Below the pieces are notes generated by a model that searched no databases, was not told the origin of the DNA, and was given only the letters and a program-made list of their open reading frames with translations. From an uncultured Gammaproteobacteria bacterium (GTDB lineage: Bacteria; Patescibacteriota; Patescibacteriia; UBA9934; GWF2-40-263), in the NCBI GenBank assembly GCA_964616135.1, contig CAZTTQ010000001.1, positions 43,875 through 107,874 on the forward strand: a DNA stretch of 64,000 bases. The letters run 5' to 3'. Positions 2,221 through 58,238 of the stretch are shown piece by piece. The position numbers were made by a program, and so were the translations under genes. Every line of letters starts with the position of its first letter. Positions within the stretch are counted from its first letter, which is position 1.

Positions 2221-3696
2221 ATGGAACTCCTCCTCACACAGGCGAATCCGGCGAAAGTCCTATGCGATACGCTGGCGTTGTTTTGGACGGAAGGAAAACA
2301 AAGCGGGATCACCAAAGAAGTGGATACGGCGTTGGACGGACTGTTGACGCAGGTGTCCGTGGAAGAGGGATTCAAGGGGAAGGCGGGTGAAACGCTCGCG
2401 CTGCGGACCGAGGGGAAATTGGCCGCCAAGCGCGTGCTGTTGGTCGGATGCGGCCCGTTGAAAGAACAGGCGGAGGAGACGGTGCGCGTGGCGGCCGCCA
2501 CGGCGTTGAACGCGGTTAAAAAGACCGGCGGGAAGTTGGTGATCGGCCTGGACGCGTTGAAGGACGTGGGAATGGGCGAAGCCGCCAAGGCGGCCGCGGA
2601 AGGCGCGTTGCTCGCGGGGTATCGGTACGGGCAATTCAAGACGCTGGAAGCGGAAGGGCCCGCGCTGGTCGTTTTGCTCGTTTCGGACGCAAAGGCGTTG
2701 AAGCAGGCGAAAGAAGGATTCGCCCTCGGGAAGCTGTTTGCGGAGGCGACCAAAACCGCCCGCGACTTGGTGAACCACCCGGGCGGGCACCTGACGCCGG
2801 CGGAACTGGCGAAGCAGGCCGAAGCGCTGGTGGCCGGCAAGGCGCGCGTTTCGTTCACGTCGTACGACAAGGCGAAGTTGTCGGAGATGGGCATGGGCGG
2901 GCTGTTGGGCGTCGGGCAGGGGAGCGACCATGACCCGGTGCTCGTCCACATGGCGTACTCGCCCGCCAAGGCAAAGAAGCGCGTGGCGCTGGTCGGAAAA
3001 GCGATCACGTTCGATTCGGGCGGCCTATCCATCAAGACCAGCAAGGGCATGGAGACCATGAAGTGCGACATGGCCGGCGCCGCGGCCGTCATCGGCGCGT
3101 TCTCCGCTATTTCGGCCTTGAAGCCGGACGTGGAAGTGCACGGTATTTTCGGCGCCTGCGAGAACATGGTGAGCGGCAACTCGCTCCGTCCCGGCGACGT
3201 GGTGAAAACCATGGGTGGCAAGACGATCGAAATTCTGAACACGGACGCCGAAGGCCGCGTGACGCTGGCGGACACGCTCCATTACGCAACGACGCTCGAA
3301 CCGGACTACATCATCGACTTGGCGACACTGACGGGCGCCGTCGTGGTCGCGCTCGGGGAGGAAATCACCGGCCTCATGTCCAACGACCCGCGTTTGGCCG
3401 CCAAGGTGAAAGCCGCGAGCGTCGAAGCCGGGGAGAAAATGTGGGAGCTTCCGCTCGAGCCGAACTACACGTTCGAACTGAAGTCCGACGTCGCGGACTA
3501 TAAGAACGACACGAGCCGCAACGGCATGTCGCTGACGGCCGGGTTGCTGCTGCAGGAATTCGTCGCCGGGAAGCCGTGGGTCCACTTGGACATCGCCGGC
3601 CCCGCGTTTGCCGATCGCCCGCACAACGCCTACACCAAAAAAGGCGGCACGGGACACGGGGTGCGCACGTTATTGACGTGGTTGCGCGCGCAGTAG
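2221..3696 (+). CDS. pepA: leucyl aminopeptidase (M17 family)
   Basis: Full-length M17 signature including NTDAEGRL-type motif (NTDAEGRVTLADTL), 491 aa. Confidence 0.9.
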   Translation: MELLLTQANPAKVLCDTLALFWTEGKQSGITKEVDTALDGLLTQVSVEEGFKGKAGETLALRTEGKLAAKRVLLVGCGPLKEQAEETVRVAAATALNAVKKTGGKLVIGLDALKDVGMGEAAKAAAEGALLAGYRYGQFKTLEAEGPALVVLLVSDAKALKQAKEGFALGKLFAEATKTARDLVNHPGGHLTPAELAKQAEALVAGKARVSFTSYDKAKLSEMGMGGLLGVGQGSDHDPVLVHMAYSPAKAKKRVALVGKAITFDSGGLSIKTSKGMETMKCDMAGAAAVIGAFSAISALKPDVEVHGIFGACENMVSGNSLRPGDVVKTMGGKTIEILNTDAEGRVTLADTLHYATTLEPDYIIDLATLTGAVVVALGEEITGLMSNDPRLAAKVKAASVEAGEKMWELPLEPNYTFELKSDVADYKNDTSRNGMSLTAGLLLQEFVAGKPWVHLDIAGPAFADRPHNAYTKKGGTGHGVRTLLTWLRAQ

Positions 3697-7438: not shown

Positions 7439-8791
7439 TCAGAACGTCCACGTCTCGCCCGTGATGAGCACGGAGGAGTTGTCCAGGCAGGTTTCCACGT
7501 CCGCGAACGGATCGCGGTAGCAGAACCCGGTGACGTCGACGCGGACGGTGTCCGTGCCGGGCGCCCGCGCCTGCTCCGTGTCCATCTGGAACCGGAGCGT
7601 CAGCGGACGGGACGCCTGGATCGGGACCGCGTCGCGGGCCGTGTCCTGCATGAGGAACAGGAATTCCCCGTTGCTGGCGTTCGTCTGGATGTTGGTGAAC
7701 AACGAGCGCGACGGGTCGCGGATGTCGGTCACCCGTACGGTGGAAGGCGCGGTGTACCAGCCGTTGTCGATGATCGCAAACTGGACGGACCAGGTCTGCA
7801 GATCTCGACAGGACGCGTCGGCCACCACGTCGAACCGGAGGACTTCCCGGAGCGTGGTGGGCGTGGTGGGGTCCCAGTCCGTCTGCCCGACCTGGAGGAC
7901 GGGCGGCGGACAGGGGGGAAGCGGCGCGGCGCGGACCTGGTAGCTGAAATCGCTGTTCAGGTCCTCGAAGGTCACTTCGCTGCCGACGATGGGTTCGCCG
8001 GTTTCCGCGTCGACCAGGGTGACCAGGTCGAGCACGAGCGCCACGTGGTATGCGACCGGCGACGGCTTGAGGTCGCACTGGACGCTCACGTTGATGGACG
8101 TCCCCGAGCCGACGGCTTCGGGAAAGAACACCATCGCCTGCTCGGACAGGGGGACGTGGTCCAAGGACACTGGCCCCGCGACCTGCGCGGTGCTTGCATC
8201 CGTCAGCGTGCAGTCGCCGAGGTATTCGGCGACGTCCGCCTGGGTATGGAGCCACAGGGTCCGGTCGGGCACGACGCCGTCCTGCTCCACGCCGACGTAG
8301 GCGAGGAACCGGACGTCGCGCAACGTCACGGCGCGCGTCTCGTCCTGGATGATGAGCGGAAACAGGTCGGTGCGGGTTCCCACCGTCGTGTCGACGAGCC
8401 GCGGGACGCCGCCGTTCGGCGGGCGGACGGAGACGGTCCCCCGGACCTGCTGTCGGACACAGCCGTCGCCGGAGGCGTTCACCGTCTGGCCGGGCGGGCA
8501 CACCTTGAGGCAGGCCTTGGAGACCTCCTCGTACGCGTACCCGTCCGCGCAGGCCCGGGGACAGTCTTCCGGACGATCGACGTAGGTGTCGGTCGCCACG
8601 CACTTGTACTTGGTGACCGTCTCCTTTACGGTCACGGTTTCCTTGATGACGACCGGGGCGTCGACCGGGCACCGGGCCGGGTCGGTCACCCGCGTCTGCG
8701 CCGCGTCGCGGCAGACGTATTCCTGCGGCACGTCACCGCAGGCGGTGGCAAGGGAAAAGAGCAAGACGAACGGGACAGGGGGACGGAACAT
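7439..8791 (-). CDS. secreted cysteine-containing lipoprotein, paralog 2 (451 aa)
   Basis: Start taken at MFRPPVPFVLLFSLATAC (lipobox) with AAGGAG 6 nt upstream; C-terminal homology to paralog 1; longer track ORF to 8887 rejected. Confidence 0.7.
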   Translation of the reverse strand: MFRPPVPFVLLFSLATACGDVPQEYVCRDAAQTRVTDPARCPVDAPVVIKETVTVKETVTKYKCVATDTYVDRPEDCPRACADGYAYEEVSKACLKVCPPGQTVNASGDGCVRQQVRGTVSVRPPNGGVPRLVDTTVGTRTDLFPLIIQDETRAVTLRDVRFLAYVGVEQDGVVPDRTLWLHTQADVAEYLGDCTLTDASTAQVAGPVSLDHVPLSEQAMVFFPEAVGSGTSINVSVQCDLKPSPVAYHVALVLDLVTLVDAETGEPIVGSEVTFEDLNSDFSYQVRAAPLPPCPPPVLQVGQTDWDPTTPTTLREVLRFDVVADASCRDLQTWSVQFAIIDNGWYTAPSTVRVTDIRDPSRSLFTNIQTNASNGEFLFLMQDTARDAVPIQASRPLTLRFQMDTEQARAPGTDTVRVDVTGFCYRDPFADVETCLDNSSVLITGETWTF

Positions 8792-8868
8792 GGGTTTACT
8801 CCTTCGGTGGGGCGCGGCCTTCGCCATTACGATAACACGTCCGTTCATTTGTGATAGGGCGAGGAGTG

Positions 8869-34706: not shown

Positions 34707-35114
34707 ATGAAGATCCGTTACGTCTTCGGGACGATGGCCGCCGTATACCTTCTCAACTCCTTTTTTTACCCAGCGATGAGCGCTTGGTGGCGCGAGGTGG
34801 ACGTGCCGATGCATTTCTTGGGCGGGCTTCTGTCGGGCCTGCTCGGCCTTGCGTGTTGGGAGTGGCTTCAGGCCCGTTATCACGTGAAAAACGTTCCTAC
34901 GTGGACGGTGGCGCTCTTGGCCGTGTGTTTTACCGCGTTCGTCGCCGTGTCCTGGGAACTGTATGAGTTCGGCGTGGATGCTTGGCACCGGAGCAGGGGA
35001 ATCATCGCCCTCACGCAACAGCCGTCCGTCGCGGACACGATGGCGGACATGGCGTTAGGTCTGTTGGGTGCCGCAGTCAGCACGTTGACCTTGGTGCGTC
35101 GTTCGAGGTCGTAA
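34707..35114 (+). CDS. hypothetical membrane protein
   Basis: 4 predicted TM segments; high GC3. Confidence 0.45.
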   Translation: MKIRYVFGTMAAVYLLNSFFYPAMSAWWREVDVPMHFLGGLLSGLLGLACWEWLQARYHVKNVPTWTVALLAVCFTAFVAVSWELYEFGVDAWHRSRGIIALTQQPSVADTMADMALGLLGAAVSTLTLVRRSRS

Positions 35115-35183
35115 GGATTACTCTTTCCAGGTAGTGTCGTAAAACGAAGTAACAGGGAAGGACGGAGCAGGGGAAGGTGATCG

Positions 35184-35218
35184 CAAAAACGGGTACCGAT
35201 GCGGGTACTCGTTTTTCG
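35184..35218 (+). terminator. intrinsic terminator (acgggtacc gatgc gggtactcgt + TTTTT)
   Basis: Hairpin with A-tract before and T5 after, 75 nt downstream of 35114. Confidence 0.5.
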
Positions 35219-35696
35219 TTCGTCCCCATCTCTGCGCGCGGGAAAAATGTTTTCCGACGCGTCCGGATTTTTCTCCTACGCGGTTTTATTTTTTGCGCGG
35301 AAGAAAAATTTCGTCGCACGAATCTTTTCTTTGTGTCTGGTTATATCTTCCGAGAGGCCCTTCGACTGCGCTCAGGGCGGTCAGCATCATAAAGAGCAAA
35401 AAATGCTGACCGTTTAAAATCGCCTAGGTTGATTTGAGGGGTACTAGGATACCTGTGGCTATAGAGCCCTATGGCGCGTTTTTACGGCTTTGCGTGCATG
35501 GGGTCATCTGGAGCATGGAAAACGTCCTGAGGCACGTATAGAGGGCCGTGCGGGTTTGAAATAGAGGTACGTAGATAGGTCCAAATACAAACGGAGCGAA
35601 TAGAGATACGGACAGAAACGAATCCGCAAACGCGGAATCTATTTTGCGACAACGGCTTAAGAAGACCCGCAGAGCAGGTGTCGACAAAATGGATTC

Positions 35697-35752
35697 ATCT
35701 TAGATGACACTACAGCCCCGCGGCCTTTTCTAGGCTGTAGTGTCGTCTAAGA
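35697..35752 (-). terminator. long hairpin (20-bp stem tcttagatgacactacagcc/ggctgtagtgtcgtctaaga, 15-nt loop); likely 3' end of Cys-rich gene transcript
   Basis: 19/20 complementary positions; on minus strand followed by gaauccauuuug. Confidence 0.5.
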
Positions 35753-35877
35753 TATAATGTGCGACACCACGTATCGAATAAGGAAACCGGGCGGAAAAGA
35801 AGAAAACCCCCTGCCCTCCGATGCGGATCGGAAGAGGCAAGGGGCAAGGAGGTCCATGAAGACGGACCGGACGTATT

Positions 35878-36237
35878 TCAGAACCTGGAGAGGTCCTTCA
35901 GCTCCACGGCGTCATCCGGGTGCGGACGGCAGAGGACGCAGCGCGGCGCTTCCAGGGCCGTTCCCTGCTCCACGACGGCGTGGAAGGTCTCGGCGCTGCA
36001 CGGAACGCACGAACGCGGTTCGTAGCGCGTCACGACGATCGGGACATGCTCATCGCTCTCGCCGAAGACCGTGACGGTCTTGCAGCGCTCGCAGACGTTC
36101 GCGGGACGGATCGTCCCGTTCACGAAGTTTCCCTTGTGCTGCAGCGTATTCGTGCCGCAGCGTTCGCACCTCCTGTGTCCGACGGTGGTCTGCACCAAGT
36201 TGGTGGGCCTGGACGGGACGGTCGTGGCGGGCGCCAT
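35878..36237 (-). CDS. small protein with four CxxC motifs (two zinc-ribbon-like modules), 119 aa
   Basis: Codons are almost all G/C at position 3 (typical for this genome) whereas the overlapping + frame has mixed third positions; CERCGT...CERCKT and CVPCS...CVLCRP. Confidence 0.55.
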   Translation of the reverse strand: MAPATTVPSRPTNLVQTTVGHRRCERCGTNTLQHKGNFVNGTIRPANVCERCKTVTVFGESDEHVPIVVTRYEPRSCVPCSAETFHAVVEQGTALEAPRCVLCRPHPDDAVELKDLSRF

Positions 36238-36305
36238 GCGGGGCGTGCCCTCTTCGAGGAACGTGGGACCGGAAGTGGTCCGGAACGAGCCTACCAGGTC
36301 TTTCC

Positions 36306-36338
36306 GCCAAACGCAAAACCGCCCCGTGGAGGGCGGTT
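36306..36338 (-). terminator. terminator (aaccgccc cgtgga gggcggtt + TTTTGCGTTTGG on minus strand)
   Basis: 8-bp perfect stem; tail shares GGGCGGTTTTGCGTTTG motif with terminators at 18501 and 19171. Confidence 0.6.
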
Positions 36339-36348
36339 GGCACGGCGC

Positions 36349-36567
36349 TTACGCGAGTTGGTTCAGGAACGGCGTGAAGTAGGCTAAGGCGAGCATGGCG
36401 CTTCCCAACAGCACCAGGGAGAACGCGAGCGAGACCAGGCCCTTCAGCAAGGGATCCTCATTGGAGACGTTCATCAGCACGTAGACCGTAATGGCGAACG
36501 TGGCGGTGATGGGACCGATCACGAAGATCCAACCGACGGCCTTCACGATGAATAACAGGTTGAACAT
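36349..36567 (-). CDS. small membrane protein (2 TM, 72 aa)
   Basis: Hydrophobic ORF 5 nt downstream of the M23 peptidase gene on same strand. Confidence 0.45.
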   Translation of the reverse strand: MFNLLFIVKAVGWIFVIGPITATFAITVYVLMNVSNEDPLLKGLVSLAFSLVLLGSAMLALAYFTPFLNQLA

Positions 36568-36571
36568 AGAC

Positions 36572-37792
36572 TCAGAATGACGGGAGGTATGGCAGCGGAT
36601 TCACCGGAATGCCTTCTTTGCGGACTTCAAAGTGCAGGTGCGGGCCCGTGGACAATCCGGCGCCGGGCGACCCGGCAAGGCCGCCGGAGAGCGCGATCAC
36701 GTCGCCGCGGTTCACGAACTGGTCCGGCTTTACGAGCGGCTTGGACAAGTGGGCGTACAAGGTCGCCAGACCGTCCGCGTGGATGATCATGACGTAGTTG
36801 CCGTATTGCGACCCTTTGCGGACCCAGGCAACGTATCCAGGCGCCGCAGAACGGACCTGCGTTCCTTGGGGCTGCGGGATGTCCAAGCCCATGTGCTCAA
36901 ACAGGTAGCGGAACGGATACGTGGGGTCATGGAACAAGGTGGAAAGACCGCGGTAGCTTGGGTCCACCGGCCACGCCATCGGGCCGCTGGTGTCTTCCCC
37001 GTCCAATTTTGATTCCAGTTGGCGTTGGAGCTTTGCCACTTCGCCGTTGGTCCGCTGCTGTTCTTCTTTTAGGTCCAGCAGGAGCGTGCGGAACTGGTTT
37101 TCAGACGACTTGGTGGCGGCCAGCAAGCCTTCCTTGGCCCCCGTCTCCGTCTGCAGGCGCGTCTTCATGGTTTGGAGCTGGCCTTCCAGTTCTTCCAACC
37201 GCTTGCGCTTGCCGTCTTTGGCCGCGCGCGTGGCAAGCAGTTGGTCCCGGGCAAGTTTTGCCTTGCGCGACGCTTCGGCGAGGTCCGTATTGAGGTTTTC
37301 CAGTGACTGGAGGCGGTCGAAAATCTCTCCGAACGTCTCCGAGCCGAACAGGACCTGCAGGTTCATGTCGTTGTCCAGCGAATTGATGCGCAGCAAAAGC
37401 TGGGACATCAGTTCTCGCTGACGGGCCAGACGCGCGTTGGCGTCCGCCGCCTGGCGGTCCAAGACGGCAATCTCCGCGTTCACGGCGTCCATGTCCACGT
37501 GCGTCGCCTCCAGGTCCAGGTTGGTCTTTTCCACGCGGTTGGACAGGAGGTCCAACGAATCCTTGAGGGACTTCCCTTCCTGCTCTTTCTTTTTGATCTG
37601 CGCGCTGTACGTGTCGATGCGCCGCTGCAAATCCGTGAGCCGCGCCTTGCTGGCGGCGATGTCCTCATTGAGGCTGCGGATGCCGACGTCTTCCAATGGC
37701 AGGGTCCCCGTTTGCGCATACGTAAAACCGACCCCACCGGAAACGAGGAATATCGCACCCAGCAACGTCGGAAGAACGCGCATGTACTTCAT
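36572..37792 (-). CDS. M23-family peptidoglycan metalloendopeptidase with N-terminal coiled coil (EnvC-like)
   Basis: Signal peptide, long coiled-coil, C-terminal M23 motifs (HxxxD...GPHLHFEV). Confidence 0.8.
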   Translation of the reverse strand: MKYMRVLPTLLGAIFLVSGGVGFTYAQTGTLPLEDVGIRSLNEDIAASKARLTDLQRRIDTYSAQIKKKEQEGKSLKDSLDLLSNRVEKTNLDLEATHVDMDAVNAEIAVLDRQAADANARLARQRELMSQLLLRINSLDNDMNLQVLFGSETFGEIFDRLQSLENLNTDLAEASRKAKLARDQLLATRAAKDGKRKRLEELEGQLQTMKTRLQTETGAKEGLLAATKSSENQFRTLLLDLKEEQQRTNGEVAKLQRQLESKLDGEDTSGPMAWPVDPSYRGLSTLFHDPTYPFRYLFEHMGLDIPQPQGTQVRSAAPGYVAWVRKGSQYGNYVMIIHADGLATLYAHLSKPLVKPDQFVNRGDVIALSGGLAGSPGAGLSTGPHLHFEVRKEGIPVNPLPYLPSF

Positions 37793-56441: not shown

Positions 56442-58238
56442 CTATAGGTTTGTATCTATCCAATCAAAGATCTGGTTGAATCGAGTAATTGTGTCGATAT
56501 GAATTTTTTTCTTAGTAATTGATCCATCCGACACTTTCTCAAAAAAAGATTTAGCAAATACAATCTTCCGTTTTTCACCGATGGACTCAGCTGGATCTGT
56601 TTTTTGAACAATTTTATCGTCAATTAACTTTAAGTCATCCAAATGAAGTAGGTTTTCTACGGATGAAATTCCAATAGTGATATACATCTTGGAGGCAGCA
56701 GCTCCCTCGTCTTTTTCGAAGAGATGTTCTTTGATTTCTTCGTAAGTTTTTTGAGAATCTTTTCCTCGCGAAGAATCGTCATCGAAAATTGCGACCCAAG
56801 AAATACCGTAACCAATACAAAATGAAACTAGAGTGTATTGTTTTCTGACACCTATTCCCGGTATGAAGGCGTAGTCTGCAATATCACGTTTGAGGAGGGT
56901 TCTCATTGCACTGTAGTAATAAAAATCTGAAACTCCTTCCAGAATCACACTCTTTTTATTTGTCAGCCCAAAATCGCTTACCGAGAAGCCAATAGCATTT
57001 GCCACTGGCTGGAGTGCATCTTGTTTATTCTGAGAATCAATTTTGGAGGAAGTGATATTCTCTATCAATGTTCCTTTGGTTTTATCATTTACGATGAGGT
57101 GTATTCTTTCAAGATGATCTGTCCTGATCAAATTTGGCGAATGAGTTGAGTAGAGAAATTGATGCCCCGTTTTTGTTAGAGATTCAAATACATTGAGGAT
57201 GTCGGTCTGAGCTTTTATATGAAGATAGAGTCCGGGTTCATCCGCTAAAACAATCAATTCTCTCTCATGACCACTCGCCTGTAATTCCATCCAAAAAGAA
57301 AGAAACCATACCAATCCCTTACTCCGCATTCGGGGACGAATTTTTTGTTTATCCTTTGTCTCAATATAAAAACTTACAAAAGTGTCATCTTCGGAAGATC
57401 GTTTTTCGAATTTATAGGCAATTTTTACTCTATTATCACCGTGAATTTGTTGCTTCCATGCTTTTGTAAAATCAATCGATATAGCTTCATTATGTTTTTC
57501 CTCAATAGAGTCTCTCTTCAAGTCATCTAGACTGTACAGAGTTTTAAAATCTGCACCTGATATTTTTTCAAAGTTTTTTACGGCCTTATACCCTTTTGAA
57601 TCTTTTTTGTCGCTTTTTAGATCCTTAAGCGAGAAGGTGTCTGGCAATAGATCGCAGAAATCATTAAACAAGATGATTTTAGGAGTATGGTTCCAGAATA
57701 ACTCAGCGACTTCTGAATTCTGATCGTCAGTAAGTTCAATAATCTTTTTCCTCTCCTTCTTTACTGGAGCAACTTCTGCCTCCACATTAACGTCTTCTTC
57801 AAGAATAGAGCTACGAAAGATCTGAAAAACTGCTTCAGGGATAGATGTCTGCACCTTTTTAGAGGGATTTAGCGTTCGAGTAATTTTAAAATCTTTTACC
57901 GTGCGTTTCAGTTTTGGGATGTCAATTAATGATCCGACTTTAGCTCGCTCAATCTCATTCTGTTCACCAAATGTTTTTTCAATTTCATCCCAAAAATCAG
58001 AATCCGATTCTTCAATTTCGTATGTGCATGACACCTCTTGAATTGGTGACTCAAAATCAAATGGTATGGAATCTGATTCAAATTCTGCGTTTTCAAAAGC
58101 AGCCAGACCCTCTAAAATAGAGCTTTTACCAGACTCATTTTGACCAGCGAAAATTGCAATTCTCCCATTACCTAAAGAAATCTCTCCAGTATCCTGAATG
58201 GACTTATAATTCTTAATTCGGAATGATTTCAATTTCAT
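56442..58238 (-). CDS. OLD-family ATP-dependent endonuclease (ABC-type ATPase + C-terminal Toprim), standalone
   Basis: The ATPase half has Walker A GQNESGKSS, Walker B LIVLADEPGLYLH and H-loop STHSP. The Toprim half has Glu (VILEGVSD) and DxD (IFDDDS). Gene GC is ~35% against a ~65% background. Confidence 0.75.
   Translation of the reverse strand: MKLKSFRIKNYKSIQDTGEISLGNGRIAIFAGQNESGKSSILEGLAAFENAEFESDSIPFDFESPIQEVSCTYEIEESDSDFWDEIEKTFGEQNEIERAKVGSLIDIPKLKRTVKDFKITRTLNPSKKVQTSIPEAVFQIFRSSILEEDVNVEAEVAPVKKERKKIIELTDDQNSEVAELFWNHTPKIILFNDFCDLLPDTFSLKDLKSDKKDSKGYKAVKNFEKISGADFKTLYSLDDLKRDSIEEKHNEAISIDFTKAWKQQIHGDNRVKIAYKFEKRSSEDDTFVSFYIETKDKQKIRPRMRSKGLVWFLSFWMELQASGHERELIVLADEPGLYLHIKAQTDILNVFESLTKTGHQFLYSTHSPNLIRTDHLERIHLIVNDKTKGTLIENITSSKIDSQNKQDALQPVANAIGFSVSDFGLTNKKSVILEGVSDFYYYSAMRTLLKRDIADYAFIPGIGVRKQYTLVSFCIGYGISWVAIFDDDSSRGKDSQKTYEEIKEHLFEKDEGAAASKMYITIGISSVENLLHLDDLKLIDDKIVQKTDPAESIGEKRKIVFAKSFFEKVSDGSITKKKIHIDTITRFNQIFDWIDTNL

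Follow-up and report, generated by a model that had tools for sequence, protein, structure and literature searches.

The subject of this analysis is a gap free of open reading frames (ORFs) at positions 35115-35877 (763 nt) of a 64-kb window of DNA from an uncultured bacterium (contig CAZTTQ010000001.1; the window denotes the whole stretch analysed), which lies between a convergent DUF2238-like gene and a cysteine-rich (Cys-rich) gene. The gap is probably a replication terminus in which a non-canonical dif-like site is combined with a conserved non-coding insert and the terminators of the two genes, and for the 28-bp motif within it taken by itself, assignment as a dif-type recombination site can be made with slightly more assurance. 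Judged by the named homologues of the neighbouring M23 peptidase, the host is a relative of Candidatus Uhrbacteria (Patescibacteria, or Candidate Phyla Radiation, CPR). CPR bacteria have very small cells that are not growable in pure culture, and the separation of their chromosomes is little known; a literature search returned no account of either a dif site or motifs guiding FtsK in these organisms. The elements on which the argument turns are the following:

34707-35114, + strand: DUF2238-like membrane protein gene, left flank of the gap
35170-35176, + strand: GGGGAAG, resembling an FtsK-orienting polar sequence (KOPS), last + copy before the site; the next copy is on the - strand at 36994
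35740-35767, no strand assigned: dif-like core site GTGTCGTCTAA-GATATA-ATGTGCGACAC (11-bp arm, 6-bp centre, 11-bp arm), containing TATAAT
35878-36237, - strand: Cys-rich gene of 119 aa, right flank of the gap

The 28-bp motif in relatives and phages

Homologues of the flanking proteins were followed to their contigs, which provided the same locus in a graded series of relatives. At the amino-acid level, the M23 peptidase is 91% identical to that of the window in L086/L082 and 84% identical in L084, and the identity declines to 61% in L098, 54% in L102 and L104, and 46% in L002, a Uhrbacterium of 40% GC; L085 is a contig without the M23 gene, whose DUF2238 protein is 61% identical to that of the window. 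Additionally, a scan of a genome collection with the PGI protein returned mostly distant Alphaproteobacteria, together with the Uhrbacteria locus L002.

In the motif, which is intergenic, an AT-rich centre of 6 bp lies between two 11-bp arms related by dyad symmetry. It is the only element kept in every relative and always stands where the same two gene blocks converge. L086, L084 and L098 have an identical copy, and the motif reads GAGTCGTATAA-GATATA-ATGTGCGACGC in L102, where a gap of 263 nt carries it as GAGTCGTATAAGATATAATGTGCGACGC. The L104 form, GCGTCGTATAA-GATATA-TTGTACGACAC, occupies a gap of only 71 nt containing GCGTCGTATAAGATATATTGTACGACAC, with 22 of its 28 positions self-complementary, and the form in the 40%-GC Uhrbacterium is GTGTCGTTTAA-GTTTTA-TTGTGCGACAC. 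Because L104 and L102 keep the motif without the insert that adjoins it in the window, the motif is independent of the rest of the gap. It occurs once in the 64-kb window, once in each 7-17-kb locus of a relative, and once in a complete 42.9-kb phage.

The criteria for a dif site were those used for Legionella (PMC9765430). The inner core, ATAA-GATATA-TTGTG, resembles ATAA-TGTATA-TTATG of Escherichia coli as well as the dif site of Bacillus subtilis. Compared by eye with the published sequences (GGTGCGCATAA-TGTATA-TTATGTTAAAT for E. coli and ACTTCCTAGAA-TATATA-TTATGTAAACT for B. subtilis; PMC3025954), the motif matches one or the other at 16-17 of 28 positions, with 7 of 11 in the left arm and 4-5 of 6 in the centre.

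The motif is also found in phage-like sequences. A degenerate version of the motif, used as a search pattern, matched two IMG/VR contigs with one copy each, namely L106/L107 (at 10565-10592 of L107, some 100 nt short of the contig end) and L109 (at 3606-3633), and in L108, a relative of L107, one arm and the centre are kept at the same genomic place, about 10676. A BLAST search of GenBank phages identified a further copy, GTGTCGTACAA-CATATA-TTGTGCGACGT, which occurs once and in an intergenic position (3301-3328) in MW202497.1 (L111), a complete circular 42.9-kb phage from spring water with capsid, portal and terminase genes. No integrase appears among the 70 annotated features of this phage, no Pfam integrase domain in 12 of its hypothetical ORFs, and no integrase near the motif in the phage contigs. 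The copying of a host site by integrase-less phages is a hallmark of elements that exploit Xer recombination, and the motif-bearing phages are candidate CPR phages that would integrate through the recombinase of the host. The motif-bearing phage genomes come from groundwater and spring metagenomes. The dif/XerL system of Legionellales was likewise discovered through a mobile-element copy of its site, the attachment site of the element LME-1 (PMC9765430).

Polarity around the site

Gene direction and the orientation of a short purine-rich word both switch at the site. Genes between 19.2 and 35.1 kb all lie on the + strand and those between 35.9 and 47.1 kb all on the - strand, so that the two blocks converge on it. 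An unbiased k-mer screen for orientation toward the site picked the heptamer GGGGAAG, which in the window has 11 copies on the + strand to the left (2376, 5161, 7915 and onward to 35170), 13 on the - strand to the right (36994 to 62908) and none in the opposite orientation (24 of 24), at a density of about one per 2.7 kb; the flip falls between 35170 and 36994. Since five of these copies sit on the template strand of oppositely facing genes, the bias follows replication and not transcription. Across six lineages that were not used for the choice of the heptamer, 27 of 28 copies point at the 28-mer (binomial tail about 1e-7), in L104 GGGAAG copies confine the switch to a span of about 550 nt, and GC skew is higher to the left of the site than to its right in five of six lineages. 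We are largely confident that the gap is a replichore junction. A replication origin was considered and rejected, as genes and polar motifs converge rather than diverge and no DnaA-box cluster is present.

The motifs known to guide FtsK are 7-8-mers rich in purines, and their skew near dif is about 1 (PMC3384302). Frequent occurrence, a strong skew that inverts at the site and independence from transcription, by which such motifs are recognised, all apply to GGGGAAG, a candidate FtsK-guiding (KOPS-like) motif for Uhrbacteria on the strength of its distribution. In the mechanism proposed here, each 11-bp arm would be bound by an Xer-type tyrosine recombinase, strand exchange would take place where the 6-bp AT-rich centre meets the arms, and a chromosome dimer would be resolved into two monomers at cell division, with an FtsK-type DNA pump steered to the site by GGGGAAG copies pointing at it from both sides. 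Of this picture, the conservation, the layout of the site, the switch in polarity and the copies in phages are observed, and recombinase binding, guidance of FtsK and the way in which the insert arose are inferred.

Several observations weigh against a dif site at a terminus. On the level of the site itself, the right arm matches the conserved XerD arm TTATGTNAANT at only 4-6 of 11 positions, and the canonical dif pattern ATAA-N6-TTATGT, with two mismatches allowed, misses it; if the motif is a dif, it can therefore only be a non-canonical one, as are the sites of XerH, XerS, XerA and XerL. Furthermore, within the window no Xer or FtsK gene was seen, and no integrase domain was found in the 20 window ORFs checked. 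On the level of the chromosome, the heptamer counts from the other loci cannot be fully separated from gene orientation, and the cumulative GC skew of the window peaks at about 47-48 kb instead of 35.7 kb, an offset to be read beside the tens of kilobases reported between site and skew inflection in Legionella (PMC9765430).

The insert beside the site and the rival readings

The first-pass annotation had found no credible ORF on either strand of the gap, and this description holds: all six frames are interrupted, with 4-14 stops per frame, and no ORF is conserved in frame in the relatives. A protein-coding gap was accordingly rejected, the longest open frames shifting between lineages through indels of 1 and 5 nt. 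The G+C content of the gap is 0.47-0.52, versus about 0.63 for the window. Within the gap region, four local ORFs had no match in Pfam, ARAGORN detected no tRNA or tmRNA, and neither tandem repeats nor a CRISPR were found. An Rfam scan, as had been suggested, was run on three lineages and matched no family: the whole window gave no hit at gathering thresholds, and relaxed E-values applied to the window, L002 and L084 yielded only spurious microRNA-like hairpins. The earlier statement that gaps elsewhere stay below 150 nt was too strong, since a crude gene map shows others of 220-400 nt; 35115-35877 is still the largest truly ORF-free gap in the window. A 781-nt gap of lower G+C at 1440-2220, which appears in a gene map filtered by G+C at third codon positions (GC3), looks like a minus-strand gene missed by the filter rather than a second ORF-free region.

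Across the four closest lineages the gap agrees in size and in the order of its parts, and portions of it are recognisable in the distant L002. Its features, with the identity of the conserved blocks to L086 and L084, are as follows:

35134-35144, + strand: M1 (GTGTCGTAAAA), arm-only copy of the site's left arm, at the left boundary of the insert
35185-35217, + strand: predicted intrinsic terminator of the DUF2238-like gene (13-bp stem, 6-nt loop, T5)
35247-35300, no strand assigned: M3, conserved block (TTTTCCGAC ... TCCTACGCGGTTTTATTTTTTGC), 85% in L086 and 81% in L084
35356-35380, no strand assigned: short repeat GGCCCTTCGACTGCGCTCAGGGCGG, just 5' of the variable hairpin
35378-35387 / 35403-35412, no strand assigned: variable hairpin, 10 bp, 100% complementary
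35405-35457, no strand assigned: conserved block, 92% in L086 and 92% in L084
35413-35455, + strand: M5, conserved 43-nt block (TTTAAAATCGCCTAGGTTGATTTGAGGGGTACTAGGATACCTG) with a GGUAN-loop-NUACC hairpin, 92% in L086 and in L084
35458-35600, + strand: M6, conserved block, 88% in L086 and 70% in L084, with three of four ATAGAG(G) copies, the fourth starting at 35600
35458-35483, + strand: weak hairpin followed by T5 inside M6
35639-35692, no strand assigned: hairpin with the arm-like half-sites TGCGACA (35646-35652) and GTGTCGA (35678-35684), z = -5.6
35697-35717 / 35733-35753, no strand assigned: 21-nt inverted repeat, 95% complementary, z = -6.8
35737-35768, no strand assigned: conserved block, 94% in L086 and 94% in L084
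35795-35846, - strand: predicted intrinsic terminator of the Cys-rich gene (stem CCCCUUGCC...GGCAGGGGG, then a U-rich tail)

Identity in the spacers between blocks is 33-67%, and codon third positions in the flanking genes are 57-67% identical to L086 and 44-60% to L084. The blocks are thus conserved above third codon positions, which argues that the gap is under selection and not decaying. An earlier proposal, that the region is the decayed remnant of an inserted element, survives in part: insertion is plausible, given that L104 and L102 are without nearly all of the gap and that a repeat of the left arm borders the insert, but decay is contradicted by blocks conserved far above neutral sites and by the survival of parts of the gap in the 40%-GC relative.

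By hairpin, U-run and compensatory change, the elements at 35185-35217 (+) and 35795-35846 (-) are assigned as Rho-independent terminators. The former had been noted as a hairpin with T5 at 35184-35218 and is fully borne out, its hairpin (35185-35216) folding at -19.5 kcal/mol (z = -5.1), with a stem that differs in L086, L084 and L085 yet still pairs and G-U pairs that work on the + strand only. The latter (-28.3 kcal/mol, z = -3.5) is additional to the hairpins listed before; in L086 its 3' half is invariant and its 5' half is altered with pairing kept. The comparative check for compensatory changes that had been recommended, made with RNAalifold on three sequences, revealed them in several hairpins, and compensatory or G-U changes on the + strand occur in the first terminator, in the hairpin at 35639-35692 (compensatory in both L084 and L086), in the inverted repeat at 35697-35753 and in the GGUAN...NUACC hairpin of M5. 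As for the remaining repeats described at first pass, the hairpin placed at about 35375-35413 exists, with a stem of 10 bp instead of the 9 bp given, and the four ATAGAG motifs are all present on the + strand, within 145 nt (35461, 35538, 35561 and 35600), against 12 copies in the whole 64 kb where 6 are expected. The short repeat GGCCCTTCGACTGCGCTCAGGGCGG is common to the window and L084 (position 1708) and missing from the closer relative L086, and a copy matching at 21 of 25 positions lies in an unrelated groundwater contig (L095, position 514); it has the look of a short, widespread repeat that entered the variable part of the gap.

The insert extends over about 600 bp (35134-35739), the empty site being seen in L104, with its 71-nt gap, and in L102. 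According to the proposed mechanism, it would be accessory DNA inserted at the left arm and bracketed by a direct repeat of that arm, an arrangement that would match elements integrating by Xer recombination; it holds the terminator of the upstream gene, arm-like half-sites, M3, M5 and M6. At the left boundary, M1 (GTGTCGTAAAA) is one base away from the arm GTGTCGTATAA, and a 10-nt direct repeat, GTAGTGTCGT, which includes part of M1, occurs at 35131-35140 and 35737-35746. The sequence GTGTCGTAAAAY stands just 3' of the upstream gene in the window, L086, L084, L085, L098 and L002, and the M1 copy is absent from L104 and L102, the two lineages without the insert. Arm-like pieces recur at 35134, 35646 and 35678 and, inverted, at 35705, with four occurrences of GTGTCG in 763 nt versus about 0.5 expected; the L086 counterpart of the half-site at 35678 reads GTGTCGTCTAAGAT, a full left arm plus half of the centre. 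The inverted repeat at 35697-35753, previously described as a 20-bp-stem hairpin at 35697-35752 and indeed present, has a right arm made of the dif-like left arm, half of the centre and 8 flanking nt, and a left arm that is an inverted copy of the right. Its flanks change in step in L084 (CTCTAGGC/GCCTAGAG vs CTACAGCC/GGCTGTAG), and it is absent from L098, L002, L102 and L104.

As is expected of integrative mobile elements exploiting Xer (IMEX), the insert is flanked by a full site and a partial direct repeat, and relatives show an empty site; against that expectation, it has no conserved ORF, and no free or phage-borne copy was found. That the insert came in by recombination at the dif-like site is a possibility to which we give somewhat more than one chance in four and well under an even one. 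On the other side of the balance, about 0.5 direct repeats of 10 nt per kb would arise by chance, a search of 2.9 million viral contigs yielded no M5, and M3, M5 and M6 are under purifying selection, which an inert integration scar does not explain. Additionally, in L098 M5 is inverted relative to both ends of the unit, the end of M6 keeping its original orientation. When metagenomes were scanned with an exact 20-mer from M5, the matches were a known relative and a fortuitous hit (L096). The G+C content of the insert follows that of the host, and the insert seems to be old, vertically inherited and dispensable; integration at the site looks as if it took place perhaps more than once.

Apart from the motif, the 263-nt gap of L102 is filled with unrelated repeats. 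At 8590-8800 of that contig, a 47-nt tandem duplication spans the DUF2238 gene end and GAAGAGATTGCTTCGGC is present as two repeats, which further suggests that insertions build up at this spot. In L098, beyond M1, M5, the M6 end and the dif-like site, weak BLAST matches to the gap were not collinear and were treated as noise.

The conserved non-coding blocks beside the site pose a question separate from that of the dif-like site, and M3, M5 and M6 are most likely short structured RNA or protein-binding DNA. One reading, which is compatible with a terminus bearing a dif-like site and which we hold to be rather unlikely without dismissing it, is that one or more independent small RNAs, unrelated to the recombination site, are encoded next to it, with one candidate that would run from downstream of the TAAAAT at 35415 to the weak hairpin and T5 of 35458-35483, and another that would correspond to the block at 35485-35640. 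The identity of M3, M5 and M6 (70-92%, versus 44-67% at neutral sites) fits such genes, and M5, which is recognisable even in L002, contains a -10-like hexamer (TAAAAT, 35415); apart from the TATAAT at 35753 in the same gap, no other intergenic hexamer of either sequence occurs where the window has normal GC. M5 also forms the hairpin GGUAC-UACG-GUACC, with a UNCG-type loop on the + strand, whose fifth pair is C-G in L086, L084 and L085 and covaries to U-A in L002; the + strand folds better than the - strand (z = -7.0 vs -5.0), and an independent gene can invert, as M5 has in L098. However, Rfam contains no family matching the window, L002 or L084, a consensus scan of 34900-36400 found no sigma-70-type pair of -35 and -10 elements, and shuffled sequence folds as well as the candidate 58-nt RNA does (z = -0.9 to +0.6). 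M6 shows almost no covariation in its core and a fold no better than shuffled, and only the end of the block is recognisable in L098. In that lineage, furthermore, M5 abuts the stop codon of a cupin gene lying inside the unit and would run into the antisense of that gene, without M6 behind it. The cupin gene itself starts 6 nt after a TAAAAT placed directly 3' of the arm-only copy (10918-10940 of L098, GTGTCGTAAAATATAAATATG), and its mRNA may be leaderless.

A more speculative extension of the terminus reading, which we think improbable, makes the insert a functional companion of a non-canonical CPR dif: the half-sites at 35134, 35646, 35678 and 35705, together with M5, would bind the recombinase or a terminus-organising protein, or would yield terminus-linked small RNAs. 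Analogues exist in the XerD-only sites that unload SMC and in the accessory sequences of cer and psi; if true, such a terminus-organising module would be the first described in any bacterium.

Two further readings deny the motif a role in chromosome resolution, and both are very unlikely. The first, marginally the better of the two, takes the motif for an attB of phage integrases without host function and the gap for the scars of past prophages. Copies in three or four phage-like sequences and flanking DNA that is present or absent among relatives would suit it, but a functionless site would not stay nearly invariant in a spacer across genomes of 40-63% GC, neither the complete phage nor the neighbourhood of the motif in the phage contigs yielded a detectable integrase, and the position at the replichore junction is left unexplained.

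The second starts from the TATAAT at 35753-35758, directly at the end of the inverted repeat, and makes the 28-bp palindrome an operator over a promoter, where a dimeric repressor on GTGTCG-N16-CGACAC would control an RNA antisense to the downstream convergent gene. The flanks do have dyad symmetry, the box is perfect in four lineages (TATATT in L104 and L107), and the DNA downstream of it is antisense to the Cys-rich gene or to a 72-aa gene. The hexamer, singled out at first pass as a perfect TATAAT, is real, but it is formed by the motif centre and the first bases of the right arm (GATATA-TT in L104), and its use as a promoter was rejected: it has no -35 partner and becomes GTTTTA/TTTTAT in L002, so that TATAAT is not conserved as a -10 box. 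The centre also varies in phages (CATATA or GGTATA), each phage genome holds a single copy, nothing downstream of the box is conserved between distant lineages, and an operator would have no reason to coincide exactly with the polarity switch.

Least probable is that 35134-35767 forms one large structured non-coding RNA (ncRNA) of about 630 nt, of the OLE, ROOL or GOLLD kind, closed by GUGUCGU (35134) and GCGACAC (35761): size, absence of ORFs in all lineages, adjoining small membrane-protein genes as with OLE, a fold of -258 kcal/mol (z = -7.0) and an RNAalifold model of three sequences that pairs both ends, with 25 pairs changed on both sides, speak for it, but the inverted M5 and the cupin gene inside the unit of L098 rule out a single collinear RNA, and this loss of collinearity between lineages, together with the survival of the 28-bp motif alone in L104 and L102, a strong intrinsic terminator 50 nt from the proposed 5' end, a closing helix that never varies and so lends no covariation support, and the lack of an Rfam match, largely refutes it.

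Two observations concern the surroundings of the gap. The Cys-rich gene, which encodes several CxxC pairs, belongs to no Pfam family, and 5.8 billion proteins included just two relatives of its product; the gene occurs in the window, L082 and L098, is absent from L084, L102, L104 and L002, and forms, on the right of the dif-like site, a second insertion at the terminus that is lineage-specific. Farther along, an island of 37-48% GC in this 63% GC genome (56375-58531) contains a single gene (56442-58238, - strand) for a 598-aa AAA_15/AAA_21 ATPase of an OLD/Abi-like type known from defence systems, and was probably acquired horizontally.

Significance and known systems

If the terminus reading is true, a 28-bp site and a 7-nt guide motif could serve to find the terminus in assembled CPR genomes and to orient and check those assemblies, some CPR phages would be predicted to integrate using the host's own recombinase, and a defined substrate would be available for testing CPR Xer proteins in E. 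coli.

Among the systems with which the locus can be compared, OLE and other large ncRNAs share its length of about 600 nt without an ORF, its conserved blocks and many hairpins and the nearby genes for small membrane proteins, but differ in that here no Rfam family matches, the parts are non-collinear, a terminator lies inside, and the unit is missing from close relatives.

Parallels are also offered by IMEX elements, which include CTX-phi, VGJ-phi, TLC-phi and the gonococcal genetic island, and by the pdif modules on Acinetobacter plasmids. As in IMEX, DNA at the dif-like site lies between a full site and a degenerate or partial copy, and integrase-less phages carry a mimic of the site; as in the pdif modules, arm-like copies stand in alternating orientation, with one inverted segment (L098). 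Unlike IMEX, the insert is gene-free, seemingly vertical and of host-like G+C, with blocks under purifying selection and no free or phage copy found.

With KOPS and the SpoIIIE recognition sequences (SRS), read by FtsK and SpoIIIE (GGGNAGGG, GAGNAGGG and GAAGAAG; PMC3384302), GGGGAAG shares its form as a purine-rich heptamer, a skew of 1.0, a flip at the site and independence of gene strand; its sequence is new, and it is denser, at about one per 2.7 kb versus about one per 10-13 kb. Resemblance to dif/XerCD is found in the 28-bp length, the 11-6-11 layout, the AT-rich centre, partial dyad symmetry, the intergenic position at a replichore junction, the shared inner core (ATAA-xxTATA-TTxTG) and the purine-rich polar motifs that converge on the site. 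Unlike in dif/XerCD, however, the outer part of the right arm, GCGACAC, departs from the conserved XerD arm GTNAANT, and the two arms are more alike than those of XerC/XerD sites, hinting at one recombinase or two very similar ones.

The dif/XerL system of Legionellales (PMC9765430) differs in sequence and has a recombinase that has been identified and genetically tested. Its site is likewise non-canonical, strongly symmetric (about 29 bp there), clade-wide and near the terminus, with arms that match no known Xer-binding motif and mimics carried by mobile elements.

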